Shown here in pieces: positions 5,774 to 33,083 of a stretch of DNA of 49,924 bases. Source of the DNA: a virus (taxonomy: Duplodnaviria > Caudoviricetes); the IMG/VR virus record IMGVR_UViG_3300020207_000040, positions 1 to 49,924 of that record. One strand, 5' to 3'. A program made the position numbers and the translations under genes. Under the pieces are notes generated by a model. It was not told the origin of the DNA. It was given only the letters and a program-made list of their open reading frames with translations, and ran no database searches. The stretch's first letter is position 1. Each line of letters starts with the position of its first letter.

Positions 5774-8700
5774 TTATACTTTTATATTGTTAGCTGATTT
5801 TTCCCATGGTAAATGTTTATGACCTTCGTCATAAGCAACTCCATCATAAATTATTTTTTTATCAGGTGTTCTTGGATATTTATTACCATCCCAATAAACA
5901 TTAGATGCATCATATCCTAGTTTTCCAGATTTCATATCAGCAATATGCTTTTTTTCATGAGCAATAACTTCTTTCTTTTTTGCTGGTGATAAACCCGGTG
6001 CAACTTGAATAGTCCCATCTTTATGTGCTTTACCTAATACTCCTTCTGGTAATGCTTCTTTTTTATTTAAAGGTGTTCTTTTAGACTTATTTTTATTTGA
6101 TTTTTTAGTTTCAATACCTAATTGATAAGGACTCCACCCTAAGCTTAACAAAATATTTTGCCATGCCGCGTTTTTATCCATATCAATAGCCTTTAAGTTT
6201 TCGGCCTTTTTAAATGCCCTGTCTAAAGGTATATTAGCTATTGCAGCTGTATAATTTGCAATTGCAAATCCTTGATAAAATGGATCGTCTTTATATTGCC
6301 TCCAATTTTCAAATTTTTGAGCCTCTACTATATCACCAATTTTTTTACTTACAGGAGGAGATATTGTAAGACCAGCTTGTATTAAACCTAAAGCAGGGTC
6401 ATATACTCTTTTACCAGCTTTGCGTTTTTGGTATTGATCGTAGTATTCCATGCCAAGGTTTTTAAGAGCAGCAATTACGGCTCCCGAATAACCCATACCT
6501 CTTAAAAATCCATCTAAAAGGCCATTAGCAAAATATCCTAATTGCTTTTCAGCTTTTTCATCATCGTCATTATCGGATAACAATAAGCTAAATATAGCGC
6601 TTTGTAAACCAGAGAATATAATGTTTTGAGCAGCGCCATAATAAATTATTTTAGAAGCATTTGTTTTCCAGTCACCTCTACCATTAATTAAATCAAGTGT
6701 TGCTTTTTTAGTTTCCCTCGCATACTGTAATGGAGTATTAGCAAATGCTAATATAAATCTACCAATTTCAGATGCTTGTTGTCTAGAAATTTTATCTGGC
6801 CTAGACGATTGTTGCGATGTTTCAGCAATTTCTTGGAATTCAAGCATAGCTTGTTCTTTAGCCTCCGCTTCATTCATTCCTTGGTTTACTAATTGGTTTA
6901 TTTTATTTCTATACCAACTAGCTCCTCCAAATGAAATAGCAAAGCTATCTCCCCATTGAGTAGGCTTAAAACCTAACTCTAAAAGCTTTTTATGCGTTCT
7001 TAAAAACCAATTTCCAGGCTCTGAATCAGCAAGATCAGCGGTATTAATTTCAATTTTTAGGCCGCCACGACGCTCGGTTAAAAATGTAGAATTCCAAAGC
7101 TCAATAAAGTCATTGCTAAATTGAGGTACATTTGCCATAGCTTTAGCCATCATAAATGGATTATTAAAACTCCAGTTCATGAAGTTAATAATAGATAATT
7201 GCTGAAGAACAGCAGATCTAAGGTTTATAGCCATAACGTTTGCTACAGATTGGTTAATCCAATTCATAGCAGCATTGAATTCTTTGTCTTTACCTTTCTT
7301 ACGGTTTACGCCAGTTTCCATTCGCTCTAAAACATTTTTCAATGCATCCACAAAATCATTTCCATGCATTTGTTTTATAAGCTTCATATTAATATCAGAA
7401 AATATTTGTTCTTTATTATTAATAAATTCTGTTAAAAATAATTTTCTTTGAGCTTTATTTGAAACATTAGCTAAATCAGTTTGAATATTACCACCTAACC
7501 AATTTTCTGTTATTTCAGGATAGCCTTCTGGTATTTTAGTTATTTTAGCTAAATCATCTGCAAAAGCTTTTAATTCAGCATTTCCTTCAACTATAGAAAC
7601 TAAACCGGCAGCATCAGCTTTATTCATGCCTAAATCATACCCAGCTTTTTCATATAAGTATGCTCTTACTGCTTGTTCATTAGTATATAAACCATCAAGA
7701 ACTTTTTGTTTTAAAAGCTTTTTATTTTTATATCTTTTCTTTAACGCTCTATGATCTCGGGCTAAAGAAACTTTTGCTGCTTCATAAGCGGCTATTCCTT
7801 TAGCAAATGGAGTCATTAAATTATCTTGAAAAAACTTCATTTGAGCTTCGCCAATTGAGCCTTTGCCTAAAAATGTGTATAGCAATCCCATAAAGTCGTC
7901 AGCTCCGGGCGGAACATATATATTAATTTTTCTAAATAAAGAGCCTTTAGTAGGTTTTTTAGATCTTAATATATTATCCATTTCATCTTCGAGAGATGGA
8001 GCTTCAGCCTCTTTAGCAACTTGCACTTTCTTTTTTACGCCTAAGTCAGTAAGCATTTTATTTACAGCAGCTACATTTTTAGGTGCATCATCAGCAAAAA
8101 ACAAATCGTTATAGCCTTCAGCAACTTTTTCTGCCATCCAAAACGCTTTAGCACTCGGAGCCCCGTCACCAAGTCCGGTTATGTTTTCTAATGGTATACT
8201 TATGCCTAAAGCAGAACGTAAAAAACTTTGTATTGCCTGAGCCGAATTAGCCGGTCTAGCCGTTAATACAAACACATCACGATCTCCTTTTGCTTCAGTT
8301 AATTTTTTAGCAAGAACAGCTAAAGGCCCTTTGCTTCCGTCAACAACTTTAGAAAACTCTGAAAAGTCAAATTCTGCGCCGGCCTCCATAAGCTCCTCAG
8401 ATTGAGCCGCAAATTCTGTAGCGTTTAATTTGCCAGTTGTACCGTCTGGAAGCGTATAAAGCACATTAGATTTGCTCTGCGCAAGTGTATCGTCAAAGTC
8501 AAATACTCTTGCTTTCTTTTTAGGTGCTTTTTTATCTAACGCAACATTTCTAGCCTTACGTAAAACATTTAATTTTTCATTAAGCTCTTCAGTGCTTAAT
8601 CCCGTAGTATCTACACCCAAGTCTTTTAATAATCTTTCGCTTTGTAGCCTTACTTGCTCTTGAGCTTTAGCAACGCCCGATTCACTATATATAGATAATC

Positions 8701-11700
8701 TTACCTGTCCTGGCGTTTTTTCATCAATTATTTCCCGCGTAGCAAGGTTAGCAAATTCTAGCCATTCTCGCTCAGTCATATAATTTTTAACAGACTGGTA
8801 TCCGGCATCAATTGCTTTTGCTAAGCTTTTTCCTCCTTTGTATGCTATTTTAACCGCTCTTAATCCTCCGATTAAAACATTTAAACTAACATCTTTTGCT
8901 GCTAATATTAAAAAAGGATCAATAGCAAAACCTTTTGTGCCTGTAAGCTCTTTAAGTTTAGCAATAGCTCTATCAATAATAAACTCAACTTTATCCGCTT
9001 GTTCAGCAATTCCTTCTTGTTGCGTCTTTTTTATATCGGGAGCTATAAGACCGTCAAATCCAACATTGAATTCTTCAGCAATAGTTTTGCCGTTTTCAAG
9101 AATATAATTATTAGGGTTTATGCCTCCATTATTATTACTAACAAATTTATTAAAATATCTAGCCCACACATTATCAGTGACTTTCCAGCCTACAGGTAAT
9201 AGCGATTTATAGTTATAGCCGTCTCCAACTAATTTATTATCATCAATTTCTAATAATTGCCCTTGAAAATAATTTTTTTCTATAGGCTTAAAAGAATTAT
9301 TTATTTCACCCTTTATAGTTTTTTGAAATAAATATTTTGCTACAATGCTTGCAGGCATTGTATGCTCTTCGACTGATTTGCCAGCTATTTTTGATAAAAA
9401 TCTAATAGGAGCTGCAACTCTAACAAAAGTATTTTGATGTCCGCTTGTTTTAGAAAGTATAGCTAAAATAAATTTAGAATTATCCGGGTTATCTTTAATC
9501 ATTTTTTCAAATGTTAAAAATATTTCTTTTAATCCTTGAATTTTCTTTTTATTAAATTCTTTATGCTCTTTTGTACCAAATATATTATTAATAAAATTTT
9601 TACCGTACCCTTGCTTTGTTAAGGCTATGTTTATATTTTCTGATTCTGGTGCAAACTTTTGTGTAGGGTCTATTGAATTTAAAAGATCTTCTGTTGACGC
9701 AAACCACCAATTGCCCTTAGAAAATTCCCGTGGCCCATTTGAAAAACTTGTAGCCATTTTTTGCAGAGCTTCTTTGCTAAAATATTTAGGCAATTCATTT
9801 ATTGCCCAACTTTGTACAGCCGCTCTATCGTTTTCATTTTTTGTTAATAGTCTTTCAATTTTATTTTGTGCGGCTATAGATGACCAGCCGCCTGATTCAT
9901 ATCTATTAAAGTCTTCTTCTGTTAATAAATCACTTTGTTGAAATAAATTTTTAGCTACATTAGACTTAAGCTCATTTAAATCTATAATTTTATTTTTTAA
10001 AGCTTCATTAGTATTAAGTATTTTAATAGCATGAGCAGCCGCCACAGAAACAGTCATAGCCTCTTTAAGGCTCTTTTGTCTATTAGATCTTGCTTGCTTT
10101 TTAAGACTTGGGTCGCTAAAATATTTTACAAATTCATCTTTATTTAAATTTTTAAATGCAACTTTTTCAAGCTGACCATTTTTAAAAACGAGCATGCCTG
10201 CTTCTTCAAAAGGGTTTAAACCACCTTCCATGCGAGCCATTCTCATACCTTCAACAGTTAATGTATCATAAATAGCTTCTGCATTTTTAGCTAAGTTGTT
10301 ATCAAAGTCTTGCTTTGTTTTAGTGTTCTTACCCATAAAAGCATCAATTTTATCACGAAATTCGTTAATAAAACCGGACTTAATATTTCTTTTAAAAGAT
10401 TTAGAGTCTACATCATAGTTTTTAAGTAATTCTTTTTCAACAGTAGCAGTGTCAAGTTCAATACCTAAAGCTTTTGCAGAGTCAATTTTTTCTTGAGCCT
10501 CTTCAACAACCATTTCAGATTGCATTTGAGAGTCAATAGCAGAAACAGCATTATCTATATTGTCTGTAAAAACCTGATCAAACATTTTATTATTAAAACG
10601 CATTGCCCTAAGGTTACCCCTGTTACTTAAAAAAGCATCTAAGCCTTGCTTTTGGGGGTCAAACTCATTTTGAATGAGCATAACCATGTTTCTTTTAGTA
10701 TCTCCAATAAATTGGCTTCTTGTGTAATTACCCCTTGAATCTTTTGGTACGGGATCATATAATCTTTTAGCTATTGATTCTACAATGCCTCCCATAGCAT
10801 TTTGGAATTCTAATGCAGCTTTATTAGGCATTGTTTCGCCTTTCTTAATATTATATTTATCATATATAGCTTGAAGCTTGGTAAACTCCTTAGGTTTGCT
10901 TGCTAATCTGCTTTTTGCTCGTTCAAAAGATTTTCGAAGTTTAGCGTATCTAGCATTATACTCTTCTTGTGTAATTCTTAAATTAGGGTCTTTTGTATTA
11001 AGAAGTTCTAATAATTCTCTGCTACCATTAACAAAATCTAAACTAGCTTTTTTAATACCTTTGGCTGTAGAAAAATCAGTTCCCACAATGCCCATAGCGC
11101 TTGGAACAGAATATGCTAATTGCGCTTGTCTATTTTTTATTTTAAGATCAAGCATAGCTATTCTTTCAGGGTCTTTTACACCCTTTTTTATTTCTTCAAG
11201 ATTTTTTATTTCTTCATTTAATAATTCAACTCTTTTGTTTAAATAAAAATCTCTAGTTAAACCTTTTGTTTGATAACCTTCTAATATACTTCTTTCTAAA
11301 CTAGCAGGATCATAATTATTTTCATTAGCAGACTGTAAAATAGTATCTTTTCTTTGTGTTAAAGAATCGTATTTTTCTTTTAAAGGCTGAATTGCTAAAT
11401 TATATGCGTTTTTTGTTTTAGAATTATTAGAAACTTCAGCTGCATCTAATCTTATTTTACCAATTTCAGAATCAAGTTTTATTAATTCTTGTTTTTGTTT
11501 TGTTGTAAGATTATCAATATTATTTAAATCTTTTGCTAAATATTTTATTTGCTTAGATTTAATATCGTTTACTGCATTGCCTAAAAATTCTATTTGTTTT
11601 TTATCATTTTCAATGTTAGGATCAAGCTTAGCAATTTCTTCATTTAATTCTTTTATTAATTGTTCTCCTCTTGCTATTTCTATTTCACTGTCTTTTGATC

Positions 11701-13618
11701 TAAAAGGATTAAATATTTGTTTAAATATTAATGGGGATTTAAAAACACCTGCACTCATTACAGCACCCGACACAAATGAATCAAGCAAGCCTTCGCTTAA
11801 TTCAATTTTTTTATCAAGCATAAATTTATCAACAAGGTTTTCAGTTCCTTGTGCTAACATTTCTGTTCCGCCTTCACCTATAATGTCAGAAGCTACTCCA
11901 GAAAAAGTTTGATTCTTTATATAATTTACAACAGACTCTTTTAAAGATGGTGATTTTTTAAAAGCTGCTTTTAAAACATTTAATTGGCGTAATGTTATAA
12001 GTTCACTTCCAGCTTCTCCTAAACCAACAATAGCAGGTGCAGCAAATAATTGACCTCTTGAATATTTTATATTTGGATTAGAATCCATTTCAGCCATCAT
12101 TTCAGCATATTTTCCGCCAGCGGTCATTGCTCCCATTCCTACAAGTCCAGAATATCCGCCGCTTGCGGCAAGAGTAGCTATAATTGGTAATTGGTTTCCT
12201 ATTAACTGGGTAAACCAAAGTCCAAAATCATCGGCTTCTAAATCTGAAACAGCTTTAGGCCTTGCGATATCGGATCTAATATCTTCTGATCCAGCTTTTA
12301 AAAAATTTCCCCACTCTAAACCTGTTTTTTCAAAATCGCCTAAGCTTATGTTCTCTTCTGTTAAAGCGTCAACAACGCCCTCAGTAGCGCTAAATAAGTA
12401 TGCAGGAAGCTGCATGGTATTGCCTAAAATATCTAAAGATGTAGCGGCAAAAGAACCTACTAAATTAGATAAAGGATCATAATTTCTTTTTACTAAATCT
12501 TTTATTTCTTTTGATGTATTAGCTTTTTCTATAGAGCTTTTAATTATATCATCAGTACTTTCGTATTTTTTAGAAATATAAGATACAGCATTATTGATAT
12601 TTTCTTGTATTTGTTTTGCTTGATCTAATTCTTTTTGGTTTTTTATTTGAACTTTTGAAAAATTATCAGTATAAGAAACAATATTTTTTATAACATCTGT
12701 ATAAACATCTCGTTCTATTTGTGCATTTTTAGCATCTAATTTTCCAATATCAGCAATGCCTTCTGCTTTTTTAGTTTGTTCTTTTAATAACTCAATTCTA
12801 TTATCAGCTTCTTTTGCAATGTCTTCAGTTTTGTCGTTATATTTTTTTTGTTTTAAATTTTCAATATAAAGATCCTCTGCTTTTGAATATATTTCGCTAT
12901 CTGATATAATAGACCCCGTAGGCTTTTCTTTTTTTAATTCTGCTTTAGCCTGTTCAATAAACCCTTTTTTATTTAAGTCTTTGTCCTCTACTATTGTTTT
13001 AGGCACCCCTCCAATTGTTGGTACGCTGTAAGAATATGTTGGATTTTCAAAATAAGATTTAAATTCTGCTTTAGCATTATTTAATTCATCTTCATTTAAA
13101 GCTTCAAATTGGCTGGATGACTCTTGCCCAGAAGCAATAAGCATAGGATCCTCTGCATATTCATTTACAAATTTACCTTTTTCAAATTGATATTGTAAAT
13201 ATTTTTGTAAGTCTTCTTCTGAATTAATATTTAAACTTTTATCATTAAATAAGTCTTTTTTACTTACAATATATTCACCTTCAAAACTAAGGTTCCCAGG
13301 AATAGTGCCTTTTTCTGCACGAAATATATATTTTTTATCGGCTTCTTTTTGTTCTTTTGCTATTCTATTTGGCAGTGTTTCCTCTAGTGATTCCAAAAAA
13401 CCACCTTCCCGCTGCAAATCCATAACGTTTTGCCCCGCTGCAGGTGCAGCTTCCTCCGCAGCAGGTTCTATCTTTTTTGCTTCATCCAAAGTATTTTGAC
13501 CTAGCATTTCTGCTTTTTTATTATCAATAGCATTTTGAATTTCTTGTTGACTTAACCCTTGCGCTTCTAATTGCGCAGCAAGATTTAGTAATTCTTGTCT
13601 TTGATTTTCAGTTAACAT
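5774..13618 (-). CDS. Giant internal virion/ejection protein (2614 aa) with HAD-like and C-terminal HExxH domains
   Basis: Position after the muzzle and smaller ejection genes; helical with hydrophobic segments; VFDFDDTL...LTAR...FFADD (HAD); IAHEKKH (zincin). Confidence 0.8.
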   Translation of the reverse strand: MLTENQRQELLNLAAQLEAQGLSQQEIQNAIDNKKAEMLGQNTLDEAKKIEPAAEEAAPAAGQNVMDLQREGGFLESLEETLPNRIAKEQKEADKKYIFRAEKGTIPGNLSFEGEYIVSKKDLFNDKSLNINSEEDLQKYLQYQFEKGKFVNEYAEDPMLIASGQESSSQFEALNEDELNNAKAEFKSYFENPTYSYSVPTIGGVPKTIVEDKDLNKKGFIEQAKAELKKEKPTGSIISDSEIYSKAEDLYIENLKQKKYNDKTEDIAKEADNRIELLKEQTKKAEGIADIGKLDAKNAQIERDVYTDVIKNIVSYTDNFSKVQIKNQKELDQAKQIQENINNAVSYISKKYESTDDIIKSSIEKANTSKEIKDLVKRNYDPLSNLVGSFAATSLDILGNTMQLPAYLFSATEGVVDALTEENISLGDFEKTGLEWGNFLKAGSEDIRSDIARPKAVSDLEADDFGLWFTQLIGNQLPIIATLAASGGYSGLVGMGAMTAGGKYAEMMAEMDSNPNIKYSRGQLFAAPAIVGLGEAGSELITLRQLNVLKAAFKKSPSLKESVVNYIKNQTFSGVASDIIGEGGTEMLAQGTENLVDKFMLDKKIELSEGLLDSFVSGAVMSAGVFKSPLIFKQIFNPFRSKDSEIEIARGEQLIKELNEEIAKLDPNIENDKKQIEFLGNAVNDIKSKQIKYLAKDLNNIDNLTTKQKQELIKLDSEIGKIRLDAAEVSNNSKTKNAYNLAIQPLKEKYDSLTQRKDTILQSANENNYDPASLERSILEGYQTKGLTRDFYLNKRVELLNEEIKNLEEIKKGVKDPERIAMLDLKIKNRQAQLAYSVPSAMGIVGTDFSTAKGIKKASLDFVNGSRELLELLNTKDPNLRITQEEYNARYAKLRKSFERAKSRLASKPKEFTKLQAIYDKYNIKKGETMPNKAALEFQNAMGGIVESIAKRLYDPVPKDSRGNYTRSQFIGDTKRNMVMLIQNEFDPQKQGLDAFLSNRGNLRAMRFNNKMFDQVFTDNIDNAVSAIDSQMQSEMVVEEAQEKIDSAKALGIELDTATVEKELLKNYDVDSKSFKRNIKSGFINEFRDKIDAFMGKNTKTKQDFDNNLAKNAEAIYDTLTVEGMRMARMEGGLNPFEEAGMLVFKNGQLEKVAFKNLNKDEFVKYFSDPSLKKQARSNRQKSLKEAMTVSVAAAHAIKILNTNEALKNKIIDLNELKSNVAKNLFQQSDLLTEEDFNRYESGGWSSIAAQNKIERLLTKNENDRAAVQSWAINELPKYFSKEALQKMATSFSNGPREFSKGNWWFASTEDLLNSIDPTQKFAPESENINIALTKQGYGKNFINNIFGTKEHKEFNKKKIQGLKEIFLTFEKMIKDNPDNSKFILAILSKTSGHQNTFVRVAAPIRFLSKIAGKSVEEHTMPASIVAKYLFQKTIKGEINNSFKPIEKNYFQGQLLEIDDNKLVGDGYNYKSLLPVGWKVTDNVWARYFNKFVSNNNGGINPNNYILENGKTIAEEFNVGFDGLIAPDIKKTQQEGIAEQADKVEFIIDRAIAKLKELTGTKGFAIDPFLILAAKDVSLNVLIGGLRAVKIAYKGGKSLAKAIDAGYQSVKNYMTEREWLEFANLATREIIDEKTPGQVRLSIYSESGVAKAQEQVRLQSERLLKDLGVDTTGLSTEELNEKLNVLRKARNVALDKKAPKKKARVFDFDDTLAQSKSNVLYTLPDGTTGKLNATEFAAQSEELMEAGAEFDFSEFSKVVDGSKGPLAVLAKKLTEAKGDRDVFVLTARPANSAQAIQSFLRSALGISIPLENITGLGDGAPSAKAFWMAEKVAEGYNDLFFADDAPKNVAAVNKMLTDLGVKKKVQVAKEAEAPSLEDEMDNILRSKKPTKGSLFRKINIYVPPGADDFMGLLYTFLGKGSIGEAQMKFFQDNLMTPFAKGIAAYEAAKVSLARDHRALKKRYKNKKLLKQKVLDGLYTNEQAVRAYLYEKAGYDLGMNKADAAGLVSIVEGNAELKAFADDLAKITKIPEGYPEITENWLGGNIQTDLANVSNKAQRKLFLTEFINNKEQIFSDINMKLIKQMHGNDFVDALKNVLERMETGVNRKKGKDKEFNAAMNWINQSVANVMAINLRSAVLQQLSIINFMNWSFNNPFMMAKAMANVPQFSNDFIELWNSTFLTERRGGLKIEINTADLADSEPGNWFLRTHKKLLELGFKPTQWGDSFAISFGGASWYRNKINQLVNQGMNEAEAKEQAMLEFQEIAETSQQSSRPDKISRQQASEIGRFILAFANTPLQYARETKKATLDLINGRGDWKTNASKIIYYGAAQNIIFSGLQSAIFSLLLSDNDDDEKAEKQLGYFANGLLDGFLRGMGYSGAVIAALKNLGMEYYDQYQKRKAGKRVYDPALGLIQAGLTISPPVSKKIGDIVEAQKFENWRQYKDDPFYQGFAIANYTAAIANIPLDRAFKKAENLKAIDMDKNAAWQNILLSLGWSPYQLGIETKKSNKNKSKRTPLNKKEALPEGVLGKAHKDGTIQVAPGLSPAKKKEVIAHEKKHIADMKSGKLGYDASNVYWDGNKYPRTPDKKIIYDGVAYDEGHKHLPWEKSANNIKV
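13365..13618 (-). CDS. Predicted 84-aa transframe product of the giant gene (Cys-rich C-terminus)
   Basis: 49 zero-frame codons, then -1 frame DRTCCGGSCTCSGAKRYGFAAGRWFFGITRGNTAK, TAG at 13367-13365. Confidence 0.6.
13411..13478 (-). promoter_or_regulatory. Predicted -1 programmed ribosomal frameshift signal (slippery heptamer plus H-type pseudoknot)
   Basis: In-frame A_AAA_AAG at 13478-13472; spacer AUAGAA; stem1 CCUGCUGCGG/CUGCAGCGGG; loop GCUGCA pairs with downstream UGCAGC. Confidence 0.75.
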
Positions 13619-13619
13619 A

Positions 13620-15242
13620 CTAGTTATCTATATTATATTTTTTTGCTAATTGTTGGTCTAAATAGGATTTTATTCCGTTGTAATCTATTGGTTTATTTGT
13701 AGCGGGATCAGTCCAGGATTCTGATATTTTTTGAAATAATAAATCTGGATTATTAAAATCTTTTATATCGATTTTTATAGGCTCACCTGAATTAAATGCC
13801 TTTGTACCACTGTTCAACTCTATAAATGTTCCGTCATCTTCTGTAACTCTGGTTGCTTTAATTCCCAAATTTCTTAGATCCTCCTTCCAATCACCTGTAT
13901 AAGGTACACCTGATTTAAATTTATTTTTTTGATAAAATTCCATTAATCTTTGCTGTGTAGGAGTCAATTCTAATTCATTAGATTTTTTTGATTTTTGTGA
14001 ATAATCTAATTGAGCGGATCCGGCTTGAGCTTCAGCTTTCCTTGTATTAGCAATATCTTTTCTTAATTCTAATTGAGCTTTATATGTATCAGCGTTAGTA
14101 TTGTTTATTATCTGTTTATTGGCATCTATCACTGCATTTTTACTTTGTTCTAGCCAATCTGCTTTTAGCCCTTGCCCTTTATATTTTTCAGAAGAATTAA
14201 TAAAGTTATTTATATCGGTTAAACTTTTGCCTTCAAGTAATTTATCTAAAGTATCAATTCCATAAGATTCCGCATTACCACCTGCCAATTGATCCATTAA
14301 TTTTCGTCTATCTTCAATTTCAACAGAATCCATTAAGTATTCCTTTAATGCTTTTCTTTTATCTCCTCTACCAAGCCCGTTAAAATATCCATCAAAACTT
14401 TCAGTTGCAAATTGCTTAAACCAAGGGGTTAAAGAGTTATCATCTTTATTATATATTGTTTGAATGTCTTCTTCGTACTTACCTGTTTTAGGGTTGATAG
14501 CCCGCATTGTGTTTCCTTCTTTTGTATCAAGTATATTTTTTGCATCCGCGGCAAGCTGTTCCTTAACATTTGTTTCAGGCTTTGTTGATACAAAAGGCAG
14601 CCTATCCATTTCCGCTAAGGCAGCGCTAATAGGATTATCGTTACCATCAACATCCTTCCATGTGCCATCTAATAATATTTTACCATTATCATCAACTTTA
14701 TAGCTAACATTTGCCTCACCCCTAGCTAAAGCTGACCAAAATTGAAAATCTTTTGCACTTATAGAACCAGATAAAGTTCCATTTTCTAATCCATCTAAAA
14801 ATTGTTCAACACCTGTATATATAACTTTTTCAGCTGATTTAAAGGCTGGTATTTGAGCATTTAAAACTTGTACAGATTTTTGGTAATCTGCACTAGTAAT
14901 ATCACCATTATCTCTAGCAATTTTTAATTGATTAAGTTTATCTACTAGAATATTTGAAAAATCCGTACGAGCATCATTCAAATTATCAGAGCTTGATTCT
15001 GCGGGTAAAATTAAACCTTCTCTAACCTTTTTGTCAATGCTATTTAATGTCATTTCAGCCGCAAGCTCTCTTTGCTTTTGAGCTCTAACGTCTGCTTGTT
15101 GTTTCTTGTTTTGAGCTACAGCTTGCCTAATATTAGCCCCCATTTGCATGCCCTGCTGGAGCCCTCTTTCAATGGCCTCAATATCTTCTGTGTATGTTGG
15201 TCCGTAGTACGTAGCATCGAAGCTACCAAATCCTTGTGCCAT
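13620..15242 (-). CDS. Internal virion/ejection protein (540 aa)
   Basis: Middle gene of a small/medium/giant triplet typical of podophage ejectosomes; helical. Confidence 0.65.
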   Translation of the reverse strand: MAQGFGSFDATYYGPTYTEDIEAIERGLQQGMQMGANIRQAVAQNKKQQADVRAQKQRELAAEMTLNSIDKKVREGLILPAESSSDNLNDARTDFSNILVDKLNQLKIARDNGDITSADYQKSVQVLNAQIPAFKSAEKVIYTGVEQFLDGLENGTLSGSISAKDFQFWSALARGEANVSYKVDDNGKILLDGTWKDVDGNDNPISAALAEMDRLPFVSTKPETNVKEQLAADAKNILDTKEGNTMRAINPKTGKYEEDIQTIYNKDDNSLTPWFKQFATESFDGYFNGLGRGDKRKALKEYLMDSVEIEDRRKLMDQLAGGNAESYGIDTLDKLLEGKSLTDINNFINSSEKYKGQGLKADWLEQSKNAVIDANKQIINNTNADTYKAQLELRKDIANTRKAEAQAGSAQLDYSQKSKKSNELELTPTQQRLMEFYQKNKFKSGVPYTGDWKEDLRNLGIKATRVTEDDGTFIELNSGTKAFNSGEPIKIDIKDFNNPDLLFQKISESWTDPATNKPIDYNGIKSYLDQQLAKKYNIDN

Positions 15243-15246
15243 ATTA

Positions 15247-16503
15247 TTAGTTGTTTAGTTCCGCTAATTTAAGATCCATGTATCCTGATGCAGCGCCTGC
15301 CGCAGCGCTTGTTAAACCACTTAAGAGCATGTTTCGTTGTCTTTCATTAGCAGCTTGTTTTACCCCTGCTTCTTGAGCCTGTAAACTTAAATTAGACCCA
15401 AGTCTATTGTATTCTGCAGCTTGAACGTCTGCAGCTCCTTGAGCTTGTAATCTTTGTGCTTCCATACCCATTTGAGCATTAAATTGAGCGGATTGATTTG
15501 CAGCTTGCATATTAGCTCTGTTTGCAGCATTCTCAGCTTGAAATTGCTGCATTGTGAATTGATTTTGAGCACCAGCGTTAAATCGGTTCATTTGAGCTTC
15601 TTGACCAAATTTGCTTAAAGCAAATTGATTTGCGGCTTGAGCACCAAATCTTGCTGCGTCATTTGCAGCTTGAGCACTAAATTGGGCTGCCTGGTTTTGA
15701 GCATTAGCACCAAATTGAGCGGCTTGATTAGTTGCTGCCGTACTAAATTGCGCTGCCTGGTTGGCTTGAGCTGCATTAAACTGTTCTTGTCCTAAAGAAA
15801 ATTGTGAAGATAAATTACTTTGAGCTAATTGATCTCTTTGTAATTTCATTTCACCTTCGGCTCTACGCATTTCATTTGCTTTAACTTGCCTGTCAATATC
15901 TGAAGCAATTTGCGCTTTAGATTTTGCAGCAGCCGCAGCAAGAGCAGTTGCTCCCCCTGCACCTGTGCCAGCTTGGGCGGCTAAATCTTGAGAAGAGGCT
16001 AAAGCTTGATCAGCTTCTTGAGCGGCTAATTCAGCACCAGCGGTTGAAACCTGTAAATTTGCAAATTCATTTGTAAGTCCAGTCCCCGCTCCTGTTAATA
16101 GTGGTCCTATACTTGTGCCCTGTGCAGTATACCCTTGCGCAGTATAGCCCTTTGCATCGTAGCCTTGAGCATCATAACCTTGTGCATCTGCTAAAGTAGG
16201 CATTTGAGCTGTTTGAGCAGCGCCAATTTGAGCAGCTTTAGTAGCTACAGGATCATAAGCAGCGCCTTGTATTCCTTCAAAAGCATTTTTAAATTTATAA
16301 TTATTTACTTTTGCTAATGAGGTTTGTTTTGCTTTTTCAGCTTTTTCAGCAGCAACTTTTTTCTTTTTGCGCCCGAATAAAGAGCCAATACCCGATATTA
16401 TTCCTGGTGCAGCAGCAGCTAATGCCCCTGCTAATAATACGCCAGCCCCCTTTGTTATTTCGGGTTCAAATAATAGCGTTTCTAATAAAATCATTATAGT
16501 CAT
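15247..16503 (-). CDS. Ala/Gln-rich ejection (DNA pilot-like) protein with tandem repeats
   Basis: Hydrophobic Gly/Ala N-terminus (GVLLAGALAAAAPGIISGIGSLFG) followed by RKKKK; 5-aa and 11-aa repeats; start may be 16494. Confidence 0.7.
   Translation of the reverse strand: MTIMILLETLLFEPEITKGAGVLLAGALAAAAPGIISGIGSLFGRKKKKVAAEKAEKAKQTSLAKVNNYKFKNAFEGIQGAAYDPVATKAAQIGAAQTAQMPTLADAQGYDAQGYDAKGYTAQGYTAQGTSIGPLLTGAGTGLTNEFANLQVSTAGAELAAQEADQALASSQDLAAQAGTGAGGATALAAAAAKSKAQIASDIDRQVKANEMRRAEGEMKLQRDQLAQSNLSSQFSLGQEQFNAAQANQAAQFSTAATNQAAQFGANAQNQAAQFSAQAANDAARFGAQAANQFALSKFGQEAQMNRFNAGAQNQFTMQQFQAENAANRANMQAANQSAQFNAQMGMEAQRLQAQGAADVQAAEYNRLGSNLSLQAQEAGVKQAANERQRNMLLSGLTSAAAGAASGYMDLKLAELNN
15620..15790 (-). 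repeat. 33-bp/11-aa tandem repeat QFxAxAxNQAA
   Basis: QFNAAQANQAA-QFSTAATNQAA-QFGANAQNQAA-QFSAQAANDAA-RFGAQAANQFA. Confidence 0.85.
16117..16185 (-). repeat. 15-bp/5-aa tandem repeat Y(D/T)A(Q/K)G
   Basis: AQG-YDAQG-YDAKG-YTAQG-YTAQG. Confidence 0.85.
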
Positions 16504-16960
16504 CTTTTGTTAATGAATAATTGTAATCTTCTAATTCGTCTAAATTTTTCAATTCAAATGGATTTTGAAAAACATTTTGAAAAATACTATTTTCATGCGC
16601 ATATATAGCTCTTTGAATACCCGATTCGGAAAAACCCATATAAGGCGCTTCAAAAGTATTAGTTCCATTTTTGTCGGATACAGTTATGCACCCAGAAAGC
16701 AAAAACCAAACATGTTCTCTTTTATGAATAGCACTAATAACGGAAGTTCCTTGGTTTAATATCATTTTTCTTAAATAAATACCAGGGACAAATTCGTGCT
16801 TTAAATCAAATAATTGATTGCCATCACGAACAATGCTACCGTCATTGTGAACTAGAAGATCACTGTTTTCTTTTGAATAAGCAACTTTTAAAAGTTTGTT
16901 AACTTTATTTTCAAAAGATTTTGCTATTATTTTATTTTTAATAAATTTAATTAAATTCAT
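16466..16960 (-). CDS. Cupin-fold protein
   Basis: HEFVPGIYLRKM...VISAIHKREH.WFLLSG.I.V...APY...S..G..RAIYAHE; ATG at 16960 sits just after the previous stop. Confidence 0.75.
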   Translation of the reverse strand: MNLIKFIKNKIIAKSFENKVNKLLKVAYSKENSDLLVHNDGSIVRDGNQLFDLKHEFVPGIYLRKMILNQGTSVISAIHKREHVWFLLSGCITVSDKNGTNTFEAPYMGFSESGIQRAIYAHENSIFQNVFQNPFELKNLDELEDYNYSLTKDDYNDFIRNAII

Positions 16961-16961
16961 A

Positions 16962-17201
16962 TTATTGACTTGAATAAACAGCTTCAGAATTAATTGCAAA
17001 TAATTCTGCTTTGTTAATTGATTTTTCTACTGGTAATTTAATACGTGTCCTCATAAAAGTACCTTTGGTTCCGGAAACAAGTTTTGTTGCATCAGCTACA
17101 ATAGCCCCATTAGAAGCTTTATAAGTTGTTTCTTCAGAAACTATAGGTGCAAAATATTTGCCTTCTTTTTCTTCAAAGGGAAATTTAATTATTGTGCTCA
17201 T
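16962..17201 (-). CDS. Small tail protein resembling the C-terminal segment of crAss-like muzzle/stabilisation proteins
   Basis: F.EKEGKYFA.I...SGTKG.FM...K.ELFAINSE...SS; TAATG-coupled to the upstream gene. Confidence 0.6.
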   Translation of the reverse strand: MSTIIKFPFEEKEGKYFAPIVSEETTYKASNGAIVADATKLVSGTKGTFMRTRIKLPVEKSINKAELFAINSEAVYSSQ

Positions 17202-20200
17202 TATGCATTTTGTGTTATAGTAATTGTTTGATTTGCAACAGCAGGTCCTGTAACGCGTGAATTATTATATTTACTTATAGTTAATGTAGCAGTCCTACTA
17301 GACCCCGTTGTATTGTCACTTACATTAATTGCAAAAGGATAATTTGAACCAAGAAGATTTAAACCATCGGGATCAACAACCTTTGAGCCAGGCGAACCAT
17401 TTATTAATACCCAGTTTTGATTAGATGAAATTTGTATAGGTATTGTAGCTCCATTAGCATTTGTTATTAATGTGCTTGGATTAGAATCAGCTGCAAACGT
17501 TATTGAAGGGACGTAGGTTCCAACTGATGCAGTAACTTCGCCCGCTCCAGTTATTGTGGATGTAGCCAAAGTAGTTTCAGAAACTTTTGGTAAAACAATA
17601 GTTTTTTCTAAATATTCCTGAGTACTGCTTTCTACTGTAGATGTTACAGAATATCCGGGTACATCATAAGTAATATCATGGCCATCAGGTAAAAACACTT
17701 TGGTTGAGCCAGAAGCAGTCCATCTTATTGTTGCAGTTCTTGTGTCTGGACTATCATATGGTGTTATGGTGTATGCCACTCCAACCGTAGTCCCGCTTGG
17801 TGTTGTTATTACTCCGCTAGCGGGAGTTGCCCACGTAAGAGTTGGTTTTGCTAAAGCACTACCACTTATACCCAACGAATTGTTTGTTGCAACATTAGGC
17901 ACTGTGATTGGGAACCCAGCTGTTAACGAGCTAGACGTAACAGAAATATTAAATGGAACTATATTAGTAGCTCCGCCCATACCGCTGTGGTTTGAACAAT
18001 AATAATATAAATCAGGAGTAGATTCTGTTATTTCTATTTGTATATATGCACCAGCAGTTCCTGGAGTTCCATTTTCTGTAACGCCAGTTGTGTATTCTGA
18101 ACCGCCTCCGTGTGTACCGTCTGAAGTTGTACTGAATTTTAACGGATGAGATGCATTAGAAGAATCACTCTGATCAAATATATAAGTCTTGCCTATTGTC
18201 ATTGCTATAACAGGCTGTTTTATATCATCTATAACAATTTTGTTACCAGTATAATTTCTTATTATAACATCTTTTGTTACAGTGCCAGATATAGCGCTTG
18301 AATTATAAGAACCTAATGAAGATACATTTGCTGAAATGTAACCTGGGTCAATATAATGAGTGCTTATTGGTGAAACATCAACATCTAAATCCGTATTGCC
18401 TGGGTTTGTAAATGTAGCTAATGCAGGACTTACTGTCCCATTAGAAACAGCATCCCCAACGCTTACAGTAAGAAGACTCACTTCGTAAACCAAATCAGCA
18501 CCAATACCAGATACAGTAATTGTTTTTGTTTCGTTTATTGTGCCTGCGGTATAACTTATTAAAAATACTAAGTTGTTATTTGTTATTTGCGTTGGATTTT
18601 GAATAGTCAATCCGCTACCAGACAAAACAACATCCGTTACAGATTCAAATTGGTAATCGGCGTTTTTAGGCTTAGCAGTAATTACCCATTGGATAGTTTC
18701 ATTTTCTTTTGCATAGATAGATCTTTCACCAGAAACAACGCTATTGTTAACAGCTCCTGATAATTGCAGAGAAATTAAACTATAGCTATCTAGTACTGGA
18801 GCATCACCAACAGAACCTAAATCGGTTTGTAAAAAGTCAAGTTCCCAACCTTCAGTACCTTCATAGCTTATATTATTAAAAGTTTTAACCGTAGAAGGGT
18901 TATCATTTAATATTGGTTCAATATAAGATTCAGCAGCGGCTGCCCCGTAAAAAGTATTTCTATTTACAGTGCTATCATTATGTTTCCATAATTTACCGTT
19001 TTTAAAACTGTAATATACATTATTTAAACTAATGCCGCCCTCTTGTTCAAATGATTTAAAACTTGTCCATCCTTGCGAAGATTCATCAAAAGACAATGTA
19101 AAATAGTTATCACCTGCTGTAGCTATATTGGTGTCATCAAATCCACCATATCCTTCACCTATAATTGTTAAGTGATATAACCCTTGGTATTCATCATAAG
19201 AACCAATAACGTCAGTAGAATTTTTTAAAGCATCTCTAAAAAAGTCTTTCATTCCGTTTCTTGATATTTCAACCAATCCATTTTGAGAAAGGCGCATTAC
19301 AGCTCCTCTATTTTTATCTGTAAAGTATTTAGCATACCCATAATATGCAAATGATTTAGCATCTTTTGAAATACCAAACTCACCAGCGTATGGTGCAATA
19401 GTACCTAAAAACTGCGAACTTGTTGTTACAGGTATCGCTCCGCCTTCAGCAGAAAATATAAAGTTTTTATTTACAGGAGATCTTGAAATCTTATCTTCTT
19501 GAAAAACAACAACTTGCGTGTCATCCGCAAAAAGCTTTTGTATTGATCCATCTTGTGGATCTAAAGATATTGTTAAGCCGCCTTCAGATTCATTAAATTG
19601 ATTTATATAATTTACATTTGTTCTTGAATTAAATAAACCGCTTGAATGAATTAGCGTATTGAATCTTCTTTCTTCTGCAAAGTTTTCTTTTGTAACATAT
19701 GCTCTTACTCCTACATCAAAAGCTTTTTCATTATATCCAGCTCTTAATCTATTTATTTCAATATGAGCACCTGAACTAAATGTAAACAAATAACAATTAT
19801 AAAATTGTATATCTATAGCAGTTGTGGTTAATGTTGAAACCAAACCTCCAGTTGATGTTTCATAGAAAATATCTAAATCAGAAATAATAGGTTCTGTTTC
19901 AAACACGCATATTCCTCCGCTAACTCCATCTGTTGGTACAGTAGCAAGACCAGATGGATTTGCTATAGACTGTATTTTAGATAAACTAGCTGTTGTTTTG
20001 TTTACTCCATTTAATATTTTTGGATAAACAGAAACATTACATGGTGATATTGAGCTACCTGTGCTTGGGGGTATAACAGCTGTTTGATCTCTAGGTATTT
20101 TATTAATACTGTCTCCTAAACGAGATACTGTATTTAATGCTGTAATTCCTGAAATCCAATTATAATATTCTTGCTCTCTTTGTTTTACAACTATTCTATA

Positions 20201-21532
20201 AGAATAACACCAATCTAAGGCTTGTAAAGCATCAATAGAAGCTTGCGAAAATGCTATACGCAATGAATTAAAAGCTGTAGTAGTGGTAGCATCACCTGTG
20301 CTTGCGTCAACAAAAACAGTATCACCACCAGTTTCAGATAATAAAACAGGTGTTTGTCTTCCAAATTTATCAGCTAATACTACGCCAACTTGATATGTTC
20401 TTCTTGACTTTACAGACATTTTATCATCAAGTGCAGTATATCTTGCAGAGCTTTCGCCTGTTCTGGTTACAGTAAATGATAAAGCAGGTATATTATAGTT
20501 TTGTAAATAATTACCATATATTAATCTACCACCAGCTAATTCTTGAGATTTTGCTTTTCTCGGTACGGAATCATATACTCTTGTCAATTGATCCGCGGGT
20601 AATGTTTTGAAGGGGTCTTGTGATTTGTAGAAAAAGTTAACAGAAGTTTCTGTAGTTACAATTTTCTTTTCTACAACATAAAGAGAGTTAGATCCTGTTT
20701 CTTTATATATCAATTCAACCTTTTCAATACCAAAATTTGCAGGCGTAGGTATAGATAATTGTACGGATTTAATTGCATTTACAAATGTTTCAATTTCGCC
20801 AAAAGAATCAATGTTACTGGATACAGTATCTACATTGTCTAATCTTGAAAAGCACACAGGCGTAAAAGGAGCCAGTACGCTATATTCGCCATCTTCAAAC
20901 TGGTATCTATAAGAAAATCTAATTAATTTGTTTTCTAAAAAGTTTGATGTAATAGGATCACCGTTTTCGTCAACGTCTGATACCCCAACTATAGTTGCTG
21001 CATTATACGGAGCATATTTAGCTACCGAAATTAAATTATTAATATTAGCTGCAAGATTATAATAGCCGGGCGTATTTTTTGCCGTTTCAACGTTTATTTT
21101 TCTTGGAGGGTTTCTGTCATCTGTCCAAAACAAAAGTTTATCTACTAGATTAATTCCTGTTATTGGATAATTTTGATGAAAGTTTAAATCCTCACTGTTT
21201 ACTATTATAGTTGATTTATTTGATTTTTGATCGTATTCAATAATCTGGTGAGAGCCAGAATTAATTTCATTATACGAATTATTGTTGGTTACAAAATAAT
21301 ATATTTTTTCGTCACCATTATCTCTGTATTGCCCAATTGTTTTAGCATTAGATATTGTAGTGTCAACAATAAGCTTATTCCCTAATATATTTTCAACTGA
21401 ACCTATATCAGAGCTTTCAGATTTACTAACGTTTATATTTAAAGCTTCTCGATATTCTCCGGGCTTAAGCATTTTTTCATCTAAATCGCGATTCATTCGA
21501 CTCGCGTTAAAGAGTCTTTTGATTTCTGGCAT
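17201..21532 (-). CDS. Tail muzzle/stabilisation (tubular protein B-like) protein with appended Ig-like, cupredoxin-like and BACON-like domains
   Basis: MPEIKR.F...RMNRDLDE.....GEYREALNI, LLFWTDDRNPPRKINV, RFSYRYQFEDGEYS.LAPFT, GRLIYGNY, YFTDKNRGAVMRLS..GL.EIS..GM, GWTSFKSF. Confidence 0.85.
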   Translation of the reverse strand: MPEIKRLFNASRMNRDLDEKMLKPGEYREALNINVSKSESSDIGSVENILGNKLIVDTTISNAKTIGQYRDNGDEKIYYFVTNNNSYNEINSGSHQIIEYDQKSNKSTIIVNSEDLNFHQNYPITGINLVDKLLFWTDDRNPPRKINVETAKNTPGYYNLAANINNLISVAKYAPYNAATIVGVSDVDENGDPITSNFLENKLIRFSYRYQFEDGEYSVLAPFTPVCFSRLDNVDTVSSNIDSFGEIETFVNAIKSVQLSIPTPANFGIEKVELIYKETGSNSLYVVEKKIVTTETSVNFFYKSQDPFKTLPADQLTRVYDSVPRKAKSQELAGGRLIYGNYLQNYNIPALSFTVTRTGESSARYTALDDKMSVKSRRTYQVGVVLADKFGRQTPVLLSETGGDTVFVDASTGDATTTTAFNSLRIAFSQASIDALQALDWCYSYRIVVKQREQEYYNWISGITALNTVSRLGDSINKIPRDQTAVIPPSTGSSISPCNVSVYPKILNGVNKTTASLSKIQSIANPSGLATVPTDGVSGGICVFETEPIISDLDIFYETSTGGLVSTLTTTAIDIQFYNCYLFTFSSGAHIEINRLRAGYNEKAFDVGVRAYVTKENFAEERRFNTLIHSSGLFNSRTNVNYINQFNESEGGLTISLDPQDGSIQKLFADDTQVVVFQEDKISRSPVNKNFIFSAEGGAIPVTTSSQFLGTIAPYAGEFGISKDAKSFAYYGYAKYFTDKNRGAVMRLSQNGLVEISRNGMKDFFRDALKNSTDVIGSYDEYQGLYHLTIIGEGYGGFDDTNIATAGDNYFTLSFDESSQGWTSFKSFEQEGGISLNNVYYSFKNGKLWKHNDSTVNRNTFYGAAAAESYIEPILNDNPSTVKTFNNISYEGTEGWELDFLQTDLGSVGDAPVLDSYSLISLQLSGAVNNSVVSGERSIYAKENETIQWVITAKPKNADYQFESVTDVVLSGSGLTIQNPTQITNNNLVFLISYTAGTINETKTITVSGIGADLVYEVSLLTVSVGDAVSNGTVSPALATFTNPGNTDLDVDVSPISTHYIDPGYISANVSSLGSYNSSAISGTVTKDVIIRNYTGNKIVIDDIKQPVIAMTIGKTYIFDQSDSSNASHPLKFSTTSDGTHGGGSEYTTGVTENGTPGTAGAYIQIEITESTPDLYYYCSNHSGMGGATNIVPFNISVTSSSLTAGFPITVPNVATNNSLGISGSALAKPTLTWATPASGVITTPSGTTVGVAYTITPYDSPDTRTATIRWTASGSTKVFLPDGHDITYDVPGYSVTSTVESSTQEYLEKTIVLPKVSETTLATSTITGAGEVTASVGTYVPSITFAADSNPSTLITNANGATIPIQISSNQNWVLINGSPGSKVVDPDGLNLLGSNYPFAINVSDNTTGSSRTATLTISKYNNSRVTGPAVANQTITITQNA

Positions 21533-31561: not shown

Positions 31562-31809
31562 TATTTTATTCTATCTTCTACTCCAAAAAACTTTACAGAC
31601 TCTTTTTTATCTTTTGTATTATCTTCAGATAATTCTTCTATCTTTTCTATTATTTTAAATGAATCTTCTATTGCAACCCATTTTGCTTGAGCAGCTATCT
31701 TTGCTTTTTCAGGTTCTAGTTCAACTAAATCTATTCGTTGTCTTATAACTTTATCTAATTCTAATAAAGCTACTTGAGCAGCTTCAATTACTTTTTTTCT
31801 CGGATCCAT
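31561..31809 (-). CDS. Small helical protein, possible terminase small subunit
   Basis: Directly upstream of and TAATG-coupled to terL. Confidence 0.55.
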   Translation of the reverse strand: MDPRKKVIEAAQVALLELDKVIRQRIDLVELEPEKAKIAAQAKWVAIEDSFKIIEKIEELSEDNTKDKKESVKFFGVEDRIK

Positions 31810-32362
31810 AGTTTATTGTTATATGATTTGATAAAATTCTATATAATTTTTGATCCTCTATGCTAAACTCATATTCTGAATCAGGTGTAAACCCTACCAC
31901 GTCGCCTACGGTAAATCCTAAGGCTCTTAAATAGCTGTTGCTATACACAAGCTCTCCTAATAATTTTCGCTCGCTGTCAGTAGCCCATTTGGAATCTTCT
32001 TTTAATGGCTTTACAAAACAATAACCTTCTAAGCAGTTCCATTGTCCATCTCTTTTGTAAGCATAAATTTGATCAGGAGCAACCATATATTCCCTATCTC
32101 TTATATAGCTAGAAGAATCTTTTTCATTGCCTCTAATATCAATCCATCTGCGAAATACGTTATGATGCAATATTACTTCATCATTTTTTTGTATTGGCGT
32201 TTGGACCATAGCTGGGGTTGAAATAACTTTGCCAATTCTATTTGTAAACATAAAATCGCGTTCTGTTATTTCTGTATTTAAAATAAGCTCTTGCCCCTCT
32301 ACATCTGTAGAATTATTATATCTTTGATTACAGTAAATAATAAAATTGAAAATTGAACGCAT
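31784..32362 (-). CDS. GroES-like co-chaperonin (two GroES-like halves)
   Basis: G.VISTP...PIQ.NDEVILHHNVF; CFVKPL...GELVY...L...GDVVGFTP.SEYEF.I..QKLYR. Confidence 0.65.
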   Translation of the reverse strand: MRSIFNFIIYCNQRYNNSTDVEGQELILNTEITERDFMFTNRIGKVISTPAMVQTPIQKNDEVILHHNVFRRWIDIRGNEKDSSSYIRDREYMVAPDQIYAYKRDGQWNCLEGYCFVKPLKEDSKWATDSERKLLGELVYSNSYLRALGFTVGDVVGFTPDSEYEFSIEDQKLYRILSNHITINYGSEKKSN

Positions 32363-32580
32363 TAGTAGTCTAGGTTGTACTCAACTGAAATTGCCATGTT
32401 TTTATTAAAATGTTTCCAAGGCAATACTTCGTCATTTTTTTTAATAAATATATTATAAGTTCCGTCTTCTTCTATGATGTCTGAAATAGTATGCCCACCA
32501 TAAACTTCTTGACCAACAGCATAATGCATTGCTTCATTTTTATAATCTTGGCCAATTGATATTTTTCTAATTAATTTCAT
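32362..32580 (-). CDS. Conserved hypothetical protein (72 aa)
   Basis: MKLIRKISIG.DYKN.AMHYAVGQEVYGGH; ATG at 32580 follows the endolysin stop. Confidence 0.75.
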   Translation of the reverse strand: MKLIRKISIGQDYKNEAMHYAVGQEVYGGHTISDIIEEDGTYNIFIKKNDEVLPWKHFNKNMAISVEYNLDY

Positions 32581-32581
32581 T

Positions 32582-32926
32582 CTAGTAAGTCCAAATTGTT
32601 GTTTCAGGTGCGCCAGGATAACCAATACCTACGTGCACAAAGTTATTTTTTCTACTTATACCTATTCTTTTAAATCCAACTTCAATAGCTGCTTTTACTA
32701 ATTTAAAGGTTGCCTCACCACCTACACAAGCAATATCAACTGCAGCACCATAAGTATGTTCGCCTGGTTTTGATTTTTTAGCTTCAATTGGATGATCAGG
32801 AGATCTATAAGTTGATGTTAACTTAATTGGAAAACCATAAGCTTCTCTTAGGTTGTCAAGCATTTCTAAAAGCTTTGGATCCATTTTATCAAATTCATTA
32901 AATTCAGATTCATTAAAGTATTTCAT
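32582..32926 (-). CDS. Peptidase M15 family endolysin
   Basis: MKYF..SEF, LDNLRE.YG.PI.LTS.YRS..H, H..G.AVDI, F.RIG....FVHV. Confidence 0.88.
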   Translation of the reverse strand: MKYFNESEFNEFDKMDPKLLEMLDNLREAYGFPIKLTSTYRSPDHPIEAKKSKPGEHTYGAAVDIACVGGEATFKLVKAAIEVGFKRIGISRKNNFVHVGIGYPGAPETTIWTY

Positions 32927-32930
32927 TGTA

Positions 32931-33083
32931 TTATTTTTTAAGTTTACTATGTATATTAATTAAAGTATAGACAATTGTTAGTAATAAAACCCCTGTCTGT
33001 AACGCGGGATTTAAACCTTCTGCCAGCGGCGAGCTTGCTATTAATGCTGTTATATTTATACCGTATATTTTTAAATCTGTCAT
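32931..33083 (-). CDS. Small holin-like membrane protein (50 aa)
   Basis: Hand translation MTDLKIYGINITALIASSPLAEGLNPALQTGVLLLTIVYTLINIHSKLKK*; ATGA overlap with the upstream holin. Confidence 0.65.
   Translation of the reverse strand: MTDLKIYGINITALIASSPLAEGLNPALQTGVLLLTIVYTLINIHSKLKK

Follow-up and report, generated by a model that had tools for sequence, protein, structure and literature searches.

A candidate programmed −1 frameshift near the start of a giant podophage ejection-type gene and its predicted 84-residue product

Why would a gene for a 2614-residue protein carry, at its 49th codon, what looks like a complete signal for leaving its own reading frame? The question is raised by a 49,924-nucleotide (nt) stretch of DNA from a virus of the Caudoviricetes (IMG/VR record IMGVR_UViG_3300020207_000040, positions 1 to 49,924; hereafter the window), in which the giant gene (5774..13618, minus strand, as is every part of the cassette described here) is the third member of a putative ejection or cargo cluster downstream of a muzzle gene and encodes the 2614-amino-acid (aa) frame 0 product. 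An earlier note on this DNA had proposed that a −1 ribosomal frameshift at an H-type pseudoknot makes a Cys-rich mini-protein from this gene. Comparison of the window with related genes leads us to conclude that the site very probably directs a programmed −1 frameshift at codon 49 and that the resulting 84-aa product is itself selected.

The slippery heptamer A_AAA_AAG (13472..13478, Lys48-Lys49) lies within the in-frame GCA AAA AAG at codons 48-49 and is followed by a 6-nt spacer (13466..13471) and by a 10-base-pair stem 1 with two G-U pairs, formed by 13456..13465 on the 5′ side and 13434..13443 on the 3′ side. Within loop 1, the hexamer GCUGCA (13445..13450) is complementary to a downstream UGCAGC (13411..13416), and the two would pair as stem 2. 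Read directly, the heptamer, spacer and both stems lie exactly where the earlier note had placed them, and the cassette is indeed a GC island, being the most GC-rich 60-nt segment of the giant gene (60% versus a mean of 32%). The stem 1 hairpin folds at −19.8 kcal/mol (z −3.07), with 1 of 200 shuffled sequences equally stable; a 6-nt loop match like stem 2 arises in 2.4% of shuffles, which alone is modest evidence. The giant gene contains 23 in-frame A_AAG sites, and no other one combines a strong stem with a −1 frame of more than 18 codons. That frame (13365..13472, also supported by the family alignment) adds 35 aa before a TAG at 13367-13365, so that the product has 49 + 35 residues, the 84 aa originally predicted. 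Independent initiation of the tail in the window was considered and rejected: a −1 frame stop lies three codons upstream (13484-13482) and the frame lacks an ATG, and the tail is therefore reachable only by a change of frame.

To place the cassette among relatives, 169 giant-gene starts were gathered, 141 of them distinct, and 138 remained after L002, L025 and L098 were dropped as the wrong gene. A recurring −1 peptide surfaced when the relatives were ranked by A_AAG plus a hairpin, and 83 of the 138 giant genes carry the cassette near the 5′ end. A separate count gave 83 distinct cassettes; L121 and L171 failed its regular expression yet are counted as carriers among the 138. Additional members were recovered by a hidden Markov model (HMM) search of 125,402 six-frame fragments, and every match below E 0.001 lay at the same place wherever a giant gene could be assigned. 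The host gene family itself is estimated to occur in ~1200 viral stretches among the matches listed.

The slippery words of these cassettes are far from random. An in-frame A_AAG is present in 76 of the 83 distinct cassettes, 14-25 codons ahead of the peptide motif, against a chance expectation of 8.4% for a 12-codon stretch. The 76 chosen sites comprise G_GGA_AAG (30), G_GAA_AAG (19), A_GTA_AAG (15), A_AAA_AAG (6), A_GCA_AAG (5) and A_CTA_AAG (1), while the other seven cassettes read G_GAT_TTT (2), A_AAA_AAA (2), G_GGA_AAC, G_GGA_AAT and, in one case, unclearly; in six of these seven a different known slippery word is present, T_TTT at a comparable spacing among them. Where the chosen site contains GGA_AAG or GAA_AAG, it is always preceded by G (30 and 19 cases), compared with 3/54 and 15/316 in the background, as tandem re-pairing would favour. 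These words match the ranking of slippery motifs in Escherichia coli, A_AA.G > U_UU.Y > C_CC.Y > A_AA.A, given in passages of PMC4066793. No upstream Shine-Dalgarno (SD)-like stimulator was enriched, at most 2 of the 76 regions holding any of five SD-like words, which fits the statement in part of PMC10798248 that Bacteroidia ribosomes do not read SD sequences. A second A6 run is present at 13519-13512, 40 nt upstream of the frameshift site, where the shifted frame stops before reaching the cassette; at this upstream run, a single contig from an RNA library (X13, depth 3) shows one additional base, which may be an error.

The pseudoknot is kept along with the slippery site. Stem 1 is present in 73 of the 76 A_AAG carriers, with spacers of 6 nt (54 sequences), 5 nt (13) and 7 nt (6), and both stems scored above threshold in 66 of the 76, as against 2.4% of 1974 background sites. 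Stem 2 scored 16.3 with its own partner versus 12.6 with partners swapped between phages, and reached a score of at least 15 in 79% of native and 25% of swapped pairings. When 22 sequences with a similar layout were picked by hand, 92% of cells were paired (25-55% in slid controls) and 9 of 16 pairs had double-sided changes; for stem 1 alone the same set gave 98.6% of cells paired and 6 of 10 pairs with double-sided changes. The compensatory stem changes by which the earlier note had proposed to judge its fold were thus found in homologues, and conservation and covariation together strongly support the H-type pseudoknot. A small Cys-free subgroup (for example L117, L137, L142 and L153) has a short hairpin only. 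The word UGCAGCGGG occurs twice in the window, the second copy at 13417-13408, and a nested alternative fold through this copy (−20.3 kcal/mol, versus −17.7 kcal/mol for stem 1 alone) is predicted in competition, so that a conformational competition with the pseudoknot is possible in the window and in L007; the second copy is absent from most aligned relatives, and the nested fold is not general.

The −1 frame bears the marks of selection on a protein. Its selected core, R-Y-G-F-x-x-G-R-W-F-F-G-I (13389..13427), is predicted to form a β-hairpin with one fully hydrophobic face and belongs to a conserved, cationic motif, [RK]YG[IF]xxG[RK][WY]F[FI]G. Across the 138 genes, a strict form of this motif gave 72 matches, in every case in the −1 frame and within 200 codons of the start, with no match in other frames or later in these genes. 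Both the heptamer and the −1 peptide, whose conservation at the 5′ ends of homologous giant genes had been put forward as a test of the proposal, are therefore kept in dozens of relatives. Sites chosen by the RNA signal alone contained the peptide motif in 64 of 68 cases, and sites chosen by stem 1 alone had a −1 frame of 28-43 codons in 72 of 79, whereas 21 of 1974 background sites reached 28 codons or more. At such motif-free sites, −1 translations had a similarity score of 60 versus 28 for frame 0. Over the 11-codon core, pN/pS (nonsynonymous relative to synonymous variation) was 0.29 in the −1 frame, 1.21 in frame 0 and 1.69 in the +1 frame in a set picked by the peptide motif and hence partly circular, for which the RNA-only and stem-1-only sets serve as motif-free checks. 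Core variation peaks at −1 third positions (entropy 1.3 versus 0.5-0.8 bits), the invariant glycines of the tail are encoded by all four Gly codons, and frame 0 over the cassette is a variable Ser/Glu/Asp-rich linker. By these measures, it is the −1 frame and not frame 0 that is under purifying selection.

The tail resembles nothing catalogued. Among 83 tails there was no Pfam match below E 0.028 and no PHROG match, the best hit to Protein Data Bank (PDB) sequences was at E 0.14, and the tail model gave 0 Foldseek matches and an uninformative top score of 0.83 in the ESM Atlas. Searched against 1.84 billion proteins, the tail profile found 25 matches, of which one was unrelated and 24 carried the tail in frame, in most cases after an N-terminal domain of the giant type. 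The 10 of the 25 that were examined were all single-member clusters on one contig with scattered junctions; these in-frame database proteins were not counted as natural fusions, as they may be assembly or gene-calling indels.

Several points weigh against the conclusion. The support for recoding is entirely comparative; the covariation set was assembled by hand and five of its members use another stem-2 register; 3 of the 76 A_AAG carriers are stemless by our criteria and ~10 have a weak or missing stem 2; the pN/pS set has the circularity mentioned above; and the cassette is missing from 55 of the 138 relatives. Set against these is the coincidence, at one place, of three features of the −1 frameshift class: a slippery motif, a covarying 3′ structure 5-7 nt downstream and a selected −1 product. 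Conservation, covariation and frame-specific selection, comparative as they are, thus lend strong support to the programmed −1 frameshift first suggested for this locus. In the scheme that we propose, ribosomes would very probably pause at the pseudoknot while on A_AAA_AAG, tRNA-Lys would re-pair from AAG to AAA, and translation would end 35 codons past the shift, giving an 84-aa protein composed of the N-terminal domain and a cationic aromatic tail.

What might this short protein do? Its first part, codons 1-49 (13472..13618), is a small N-terminal domain common to the giant protein and the predicted short product and is interchangeable among relatives. Carriers and non-carriers of the cassette are interleaved, with a minimum of seven gains or losses required by a tree that was built by a quick method from 79 rows (those of the 138 genes that include the C-terminal region), and near-sister pairs differ in it (L177/L186 and L178/L182). 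N-terminal domains fall into many BLAST clusters, six of which hold carriers and non-carriers alike, and one cassette is found behind different N-terminal domains (L001 versus L007, in which the domain is unrelated, phi13:2 versus phi18:3, and a contig in run X14). This patchy distribution and domain swapping suggest that the product is accessory and modular. A packaging chaperone, one of the roles floated in the earlier note, is unlikely as an essential function given the 55 of 138 relatives without the cassette. The N-terminal domains of the giant protein are of many unrelated types and are often tandemly duplicated (L103, L146, L202, L204, L244 and L246).

In the tails, six alternate positions are 92-100% hydrophobic, with Gly and Phe on the opposite face and basic flanks, acidic residues are almost absent, and the median net charge is +5. 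We speculate that the shared N-terminal domain would carry the short protein into the virion together with the giant ejection protein, and that the basic β-hairpin, through its one hydrophobic face, would bind lipopolysaccharide or membrane during entry. An accessory, co-packaged, membrane-binding fourth ejection protein is our best single functional guess, and a tentative one. The long tails of the elemo type described below, with their repeated Gly/aromatic strands, fit such a generic target. Weighing against it, the invariant Gly and Phe would equally suit a specific protein partner, the strands are short for spanning a membrane, and the AlphaFold model of the tail, which has strands at 14-21 and 24-31, is of low confidence (mean pLDDT 64). 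The picture in full, in which a large group of aquatic Bacteroidota podophages has a hidden fourth ejection protein that is overprinted on a linker, belongs to a new family of cationic β-hairpin membrane proteins, is produced by two recoding devices behind interchangeable N-terminal domains and is co-injected to breach the envelope, is possible but should be regarded as unlikely to hold in every part.

An alternative that accepts the frameshift is that the short protein acts as a virion-assembly adaptor, in the manner of lambda G/GT, with its tail bound to the portal or capsid interior and its N-terminal domain recruiting the giant protein. A fixed interface would account well for the invariant Gly and Phe positions, the N-terminal domain of the short form is always of the giant protein's own type, and a crAss001 cargo domain is anchored on the portal according to passages of PMC10172136. 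However, an adaptor sits awkwardly with relatives that lack the cassette (55 of 138) and with its repeated gain or loss, near-sister pairs included, with the variation of tail length and layout between clades, and with the lack of any stand-alone tail copy in the flanking sequence examined; we therefore consider it conceivable, with the odds against it.

The short protein could instead act in the infected cell, as an accessory that is made late, binds the membrane and helps either to disrupt the outer membrane at lysis or to exclude superinfecting phages. The cationic amphipathic tail would suit such a role, as would a patchy cassette exchanged between N-terminal domains, and phiKT gp28 is reportedly a precedent for lysis by a cationic peptide. 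The lysis region (31561-33496) contains a holin, an M15 endolysin and a 50-aa hydrophobic open reading frame (ORF; 32931-33083), and no spanin was recognised by eye among its ORFs. Fusion to the N-terminal domain of an ejection protein would be unnecessary for lysis, however, and we rate this explanation as rather unlikely.

The earlier note had seen in the cysteines of the tail a metal-binding or disulfide-forming mini-protein. This is an improbable core function. Three to five Cys are present in 61 of 73 tails, with three or four in most tails, one Cys column is at least 90% conserved, and in one subgroup a Cys codon persists within an unpaired loop; yet Cys spacing follows 12 patterns, 7 of the 83 tails are Cys-free, and homologous tails behind A-runs have no such cluster. 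The T that makes a Cys codon (before GC or GT) is enriched at paired positions only (169 of 245, 69%, versus 39 of 116, 34%, at unpaired positions and 38% in the background), and the Cys cluster may thus be largely a by-product of the stems, although co-selection may also play a part.

Could the RNA element, rather than the peptide, be the object of selection, lowering or pacing synthesis of the giant protein by pausing ribosomes or ending translation early? In many sequences the YG[IF]x codons share bases with stem 2, but it is specifically the −1 frame that is selected, no conserved RNA fold covers the WFFG block (mean z −0.3), and the peptide is present without a pseudoknot in L389, L381 and L349, so that this very improbable explanation is largely refuted. 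Polymerase slippage at transcription on the A6 run of the window, for which the A9-A10 runs of a distant clade might be cited, is hardly credible, since the run is only 6 A, the site in most relatives is G_GGA_AAG or G_GAA_AAG and contains no homopolymer, a pseudoknot kept at a constant distance of 6 nt belongs with ribosomal slippage, and RNA-library contigs from three runs, which drop rare variants and could derive from DNA, cross the site without an indel.

In that distant clade, a second device seems to lead to the same kind of product. The cultured phages elemoA 7-9A, phi38:1, Calle_1 and Gundel_1 have an in-frame A10 at the equivalent place, and a tail that is basic and aromatic comes after it in the −1 frame; ctfjg026, an environmental record, has an A11 run and such a tail at the same place. 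Among fresh distant loci, 22 of 24 distinct starts had a run and an aromatic −1 tail (21 A10, one A9), and for one of the two exceptions the wrong gene seems to have been picked; the background frequency of such runs is 6 in 871 kb. Three of 25 A-run tails matched the HMM at E 2.8e-10, 5e-8 and 1e-5 and two more below 0.01. The remaining 20 of the 25 miss E 0.01, a weak point of this reading, homology there resting on position and composition. Elemo-type tails are longer, with three or four repeated Gly/aromatic strands, and have no HMM match. The Panino tail (L245:27500-27610) holds the word W-F-[IF]-G twice.

In 24 of 25 cases, the sequence downstream of the A-run folded less strongly than the average of the pseudoknot class. 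Runs of nine A or T permit polymerase slippage, as in Thermus thermophilus dnaX (passages of PMC5009743), and from run length and this precedent the A-run clade probably makes its short product by RNA-polymerase slippage on A9-A10, although ribosomal slippage on A_AAA_AAA may serve instead. Five phages, phi18:3, phi19:3, phi46:3, phi13:2 and Panino, were deposited with A9 (L247:21310-21640 for phi18:3, L245:27360-27560 for Panino, and L250:11119, L251:12056 and L252:6119), with the giant gene annotated as split, its frame lying at −1 and that of the tail at +1. The simplest reading of these deposits is a homopolymer under-call, the Cellulophaga phage set having reportedly been sequenced by pyrosequencing; alternatively, A9 may be true and the giant protein itself would then need recoding. 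In crAss001, no A-run or aromatic −1 tail was found in the first 500-700 nt of gp45, 46, 47, 49 and 50.

The surroundings of the cassette are those of a podophage structural module, with terminase, portal and structural genes, a crAss-type muzzle gene and then the 418-, 540- and 2614-aa genes, in an order that matches phi38:1, phi18:3, elemo and crAss001. The muzzle-like tail gene (17201..21532, minus strand) matches Pfam crAss_MUZ at E 9.8e-14, and two putative cargo genes, so called by position, lie upstream of the giant gene (13620..16503, minus strand; 418 aa, with a hydrophobic N-terminal segment, and 540 aa). The three-gene cluster is positioned like crAss001 C1/C2/gp47 and T7 gp14-16 in the parts of PMC10172136 and PMC8954989 that describe them, and it is from this position that we infer a role in ejection. 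The giant protein was assigned to no Pfam or PHROG family, its conserved region had no PDB relative and no NCBIfam family, and tblastn gave weak similarity to elemo and Tenacibaculum phage proteins. The nearest cultured relatives (Elemovirus, Pachyviridae, Pervagoviridae and Panino) infect Flavobacteriaceae; identity to cultured Pachyviridae, Pervagoviridae and Elemovirus-related members, in a comparison of similarity alone, was 31-45% for the terminase and 29-37% for the ring protein. The sequencing runs that contain this DNA are salt-marsh metagenomes. No tRNA gene was found in the window, Rfam gave nothing at the gathering threshold in the window and chance-level matches around the frameshift site, and a promoter and terminator scan near the site was likewise at chance level.

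Two neighbouring genes deserve mention. Between the muzzle and the first cargo gene, a gene at 16466-16999 is interchangeable across loci, being 165-186 aa in some, an unrelated 135-150 aa in others and absent from L003 and L007. The 418-aa gene has an A_AAG at codon 18 (~16450-16350) with a −14.9 kcal/mol fold and a 34-codon −1 frame containing Cys and Trp; the A_AAG Lys is not evident in the relatives compared, and the signal is probably a by-product of an Ala/Gly-rich segment.

The earlier note had called the recoding event apparently undescribed, and no description of this frameshift site was found in a search of the open-access literature. The word "frameshift" is absent from the main text of PMC8776804, PMC10172136 and PMC8954989, and its sole mention in PMC7886860 concerns intron-disrupted RNA polymerase genes. 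The phage recoding cases reviewed in passages of PMC5009743 lengthen tail-chaperone, capsid or tail proteins, whereas this cassette would truncate an ejection-type gene and create an overprinted protein family missed by gene callers. One peptide behind two recoding devices would be an unusually clean natural experiment. The recoding would also explain or correct the five GenBank records with the giant gene split at this site, and the set of relatives supplies dozens of natural pseudoknot variants for −1 frameshifting on SD-blind Bacteroidia ribosomes. The proposal is directly testable, as cultured elemo, phi38:1, Calle_1 and Gundel_1 carry the A-run version and virion proteomics of phi18:3 has been published.

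Among known systems, E. coli dnaX has the same heptamer, A_AAA_AAG, a 3′ structure and a shorter product, and the dnaX genes of E. coli and T. thermophilus (with a run of nine) reach that product by two devices within one family, as proposed here (passages of PMC5009743). In dnaX, however, translation stops one codon past the shift and an upstream SD-like stimulator is used, whereas in the cassette a pseudoknot acts as the stimulator, SD-like words show no upstream enrichment, and selection falls on the tail of 28-43 residues itself. IS3-family elements share the A_AAG core, the pseudoknot and the same motif preference (passages of PMC4066793), but there the shift yields a longer fusion transposase, while here it would yield a short product within a phage structural gene. 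In E. coli copA, a 5′-proximal −1 shift likewise releases a small N-terminal domain, CopA(Z), of 70 aa versus 834 aa (parts of PMC5009743 and PMC6771820); CopA(Z) arises by premature termination and acts through the shared domain, whereas here the shared domain is interchangeable and the −1 tail is conserved.

Lambda G/GT, T7/T3 gene 10 and the Ig-like capsid extensions likewise obtain two proteins with a common N-terminus from a phage morphogenesis gene. The commonest slippery site among the relatives studied here, G_GGA_AAG, is also the lambda site. The site in the window falls outside the lambda G/GT class, as it is found at codon 49 of a 2614-codon gene, within a podophage cargo cluster that follows the muzzle gene, and would give a shorter product. 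Those known shifts occur close to the 3′ end and yield a longer protein (passages of PMC5009743), whereas the cassette occupies the 5′ end of a podophage ejection-type gene, would shorten its product by 97% and is a feature that 40% of relatives do without.

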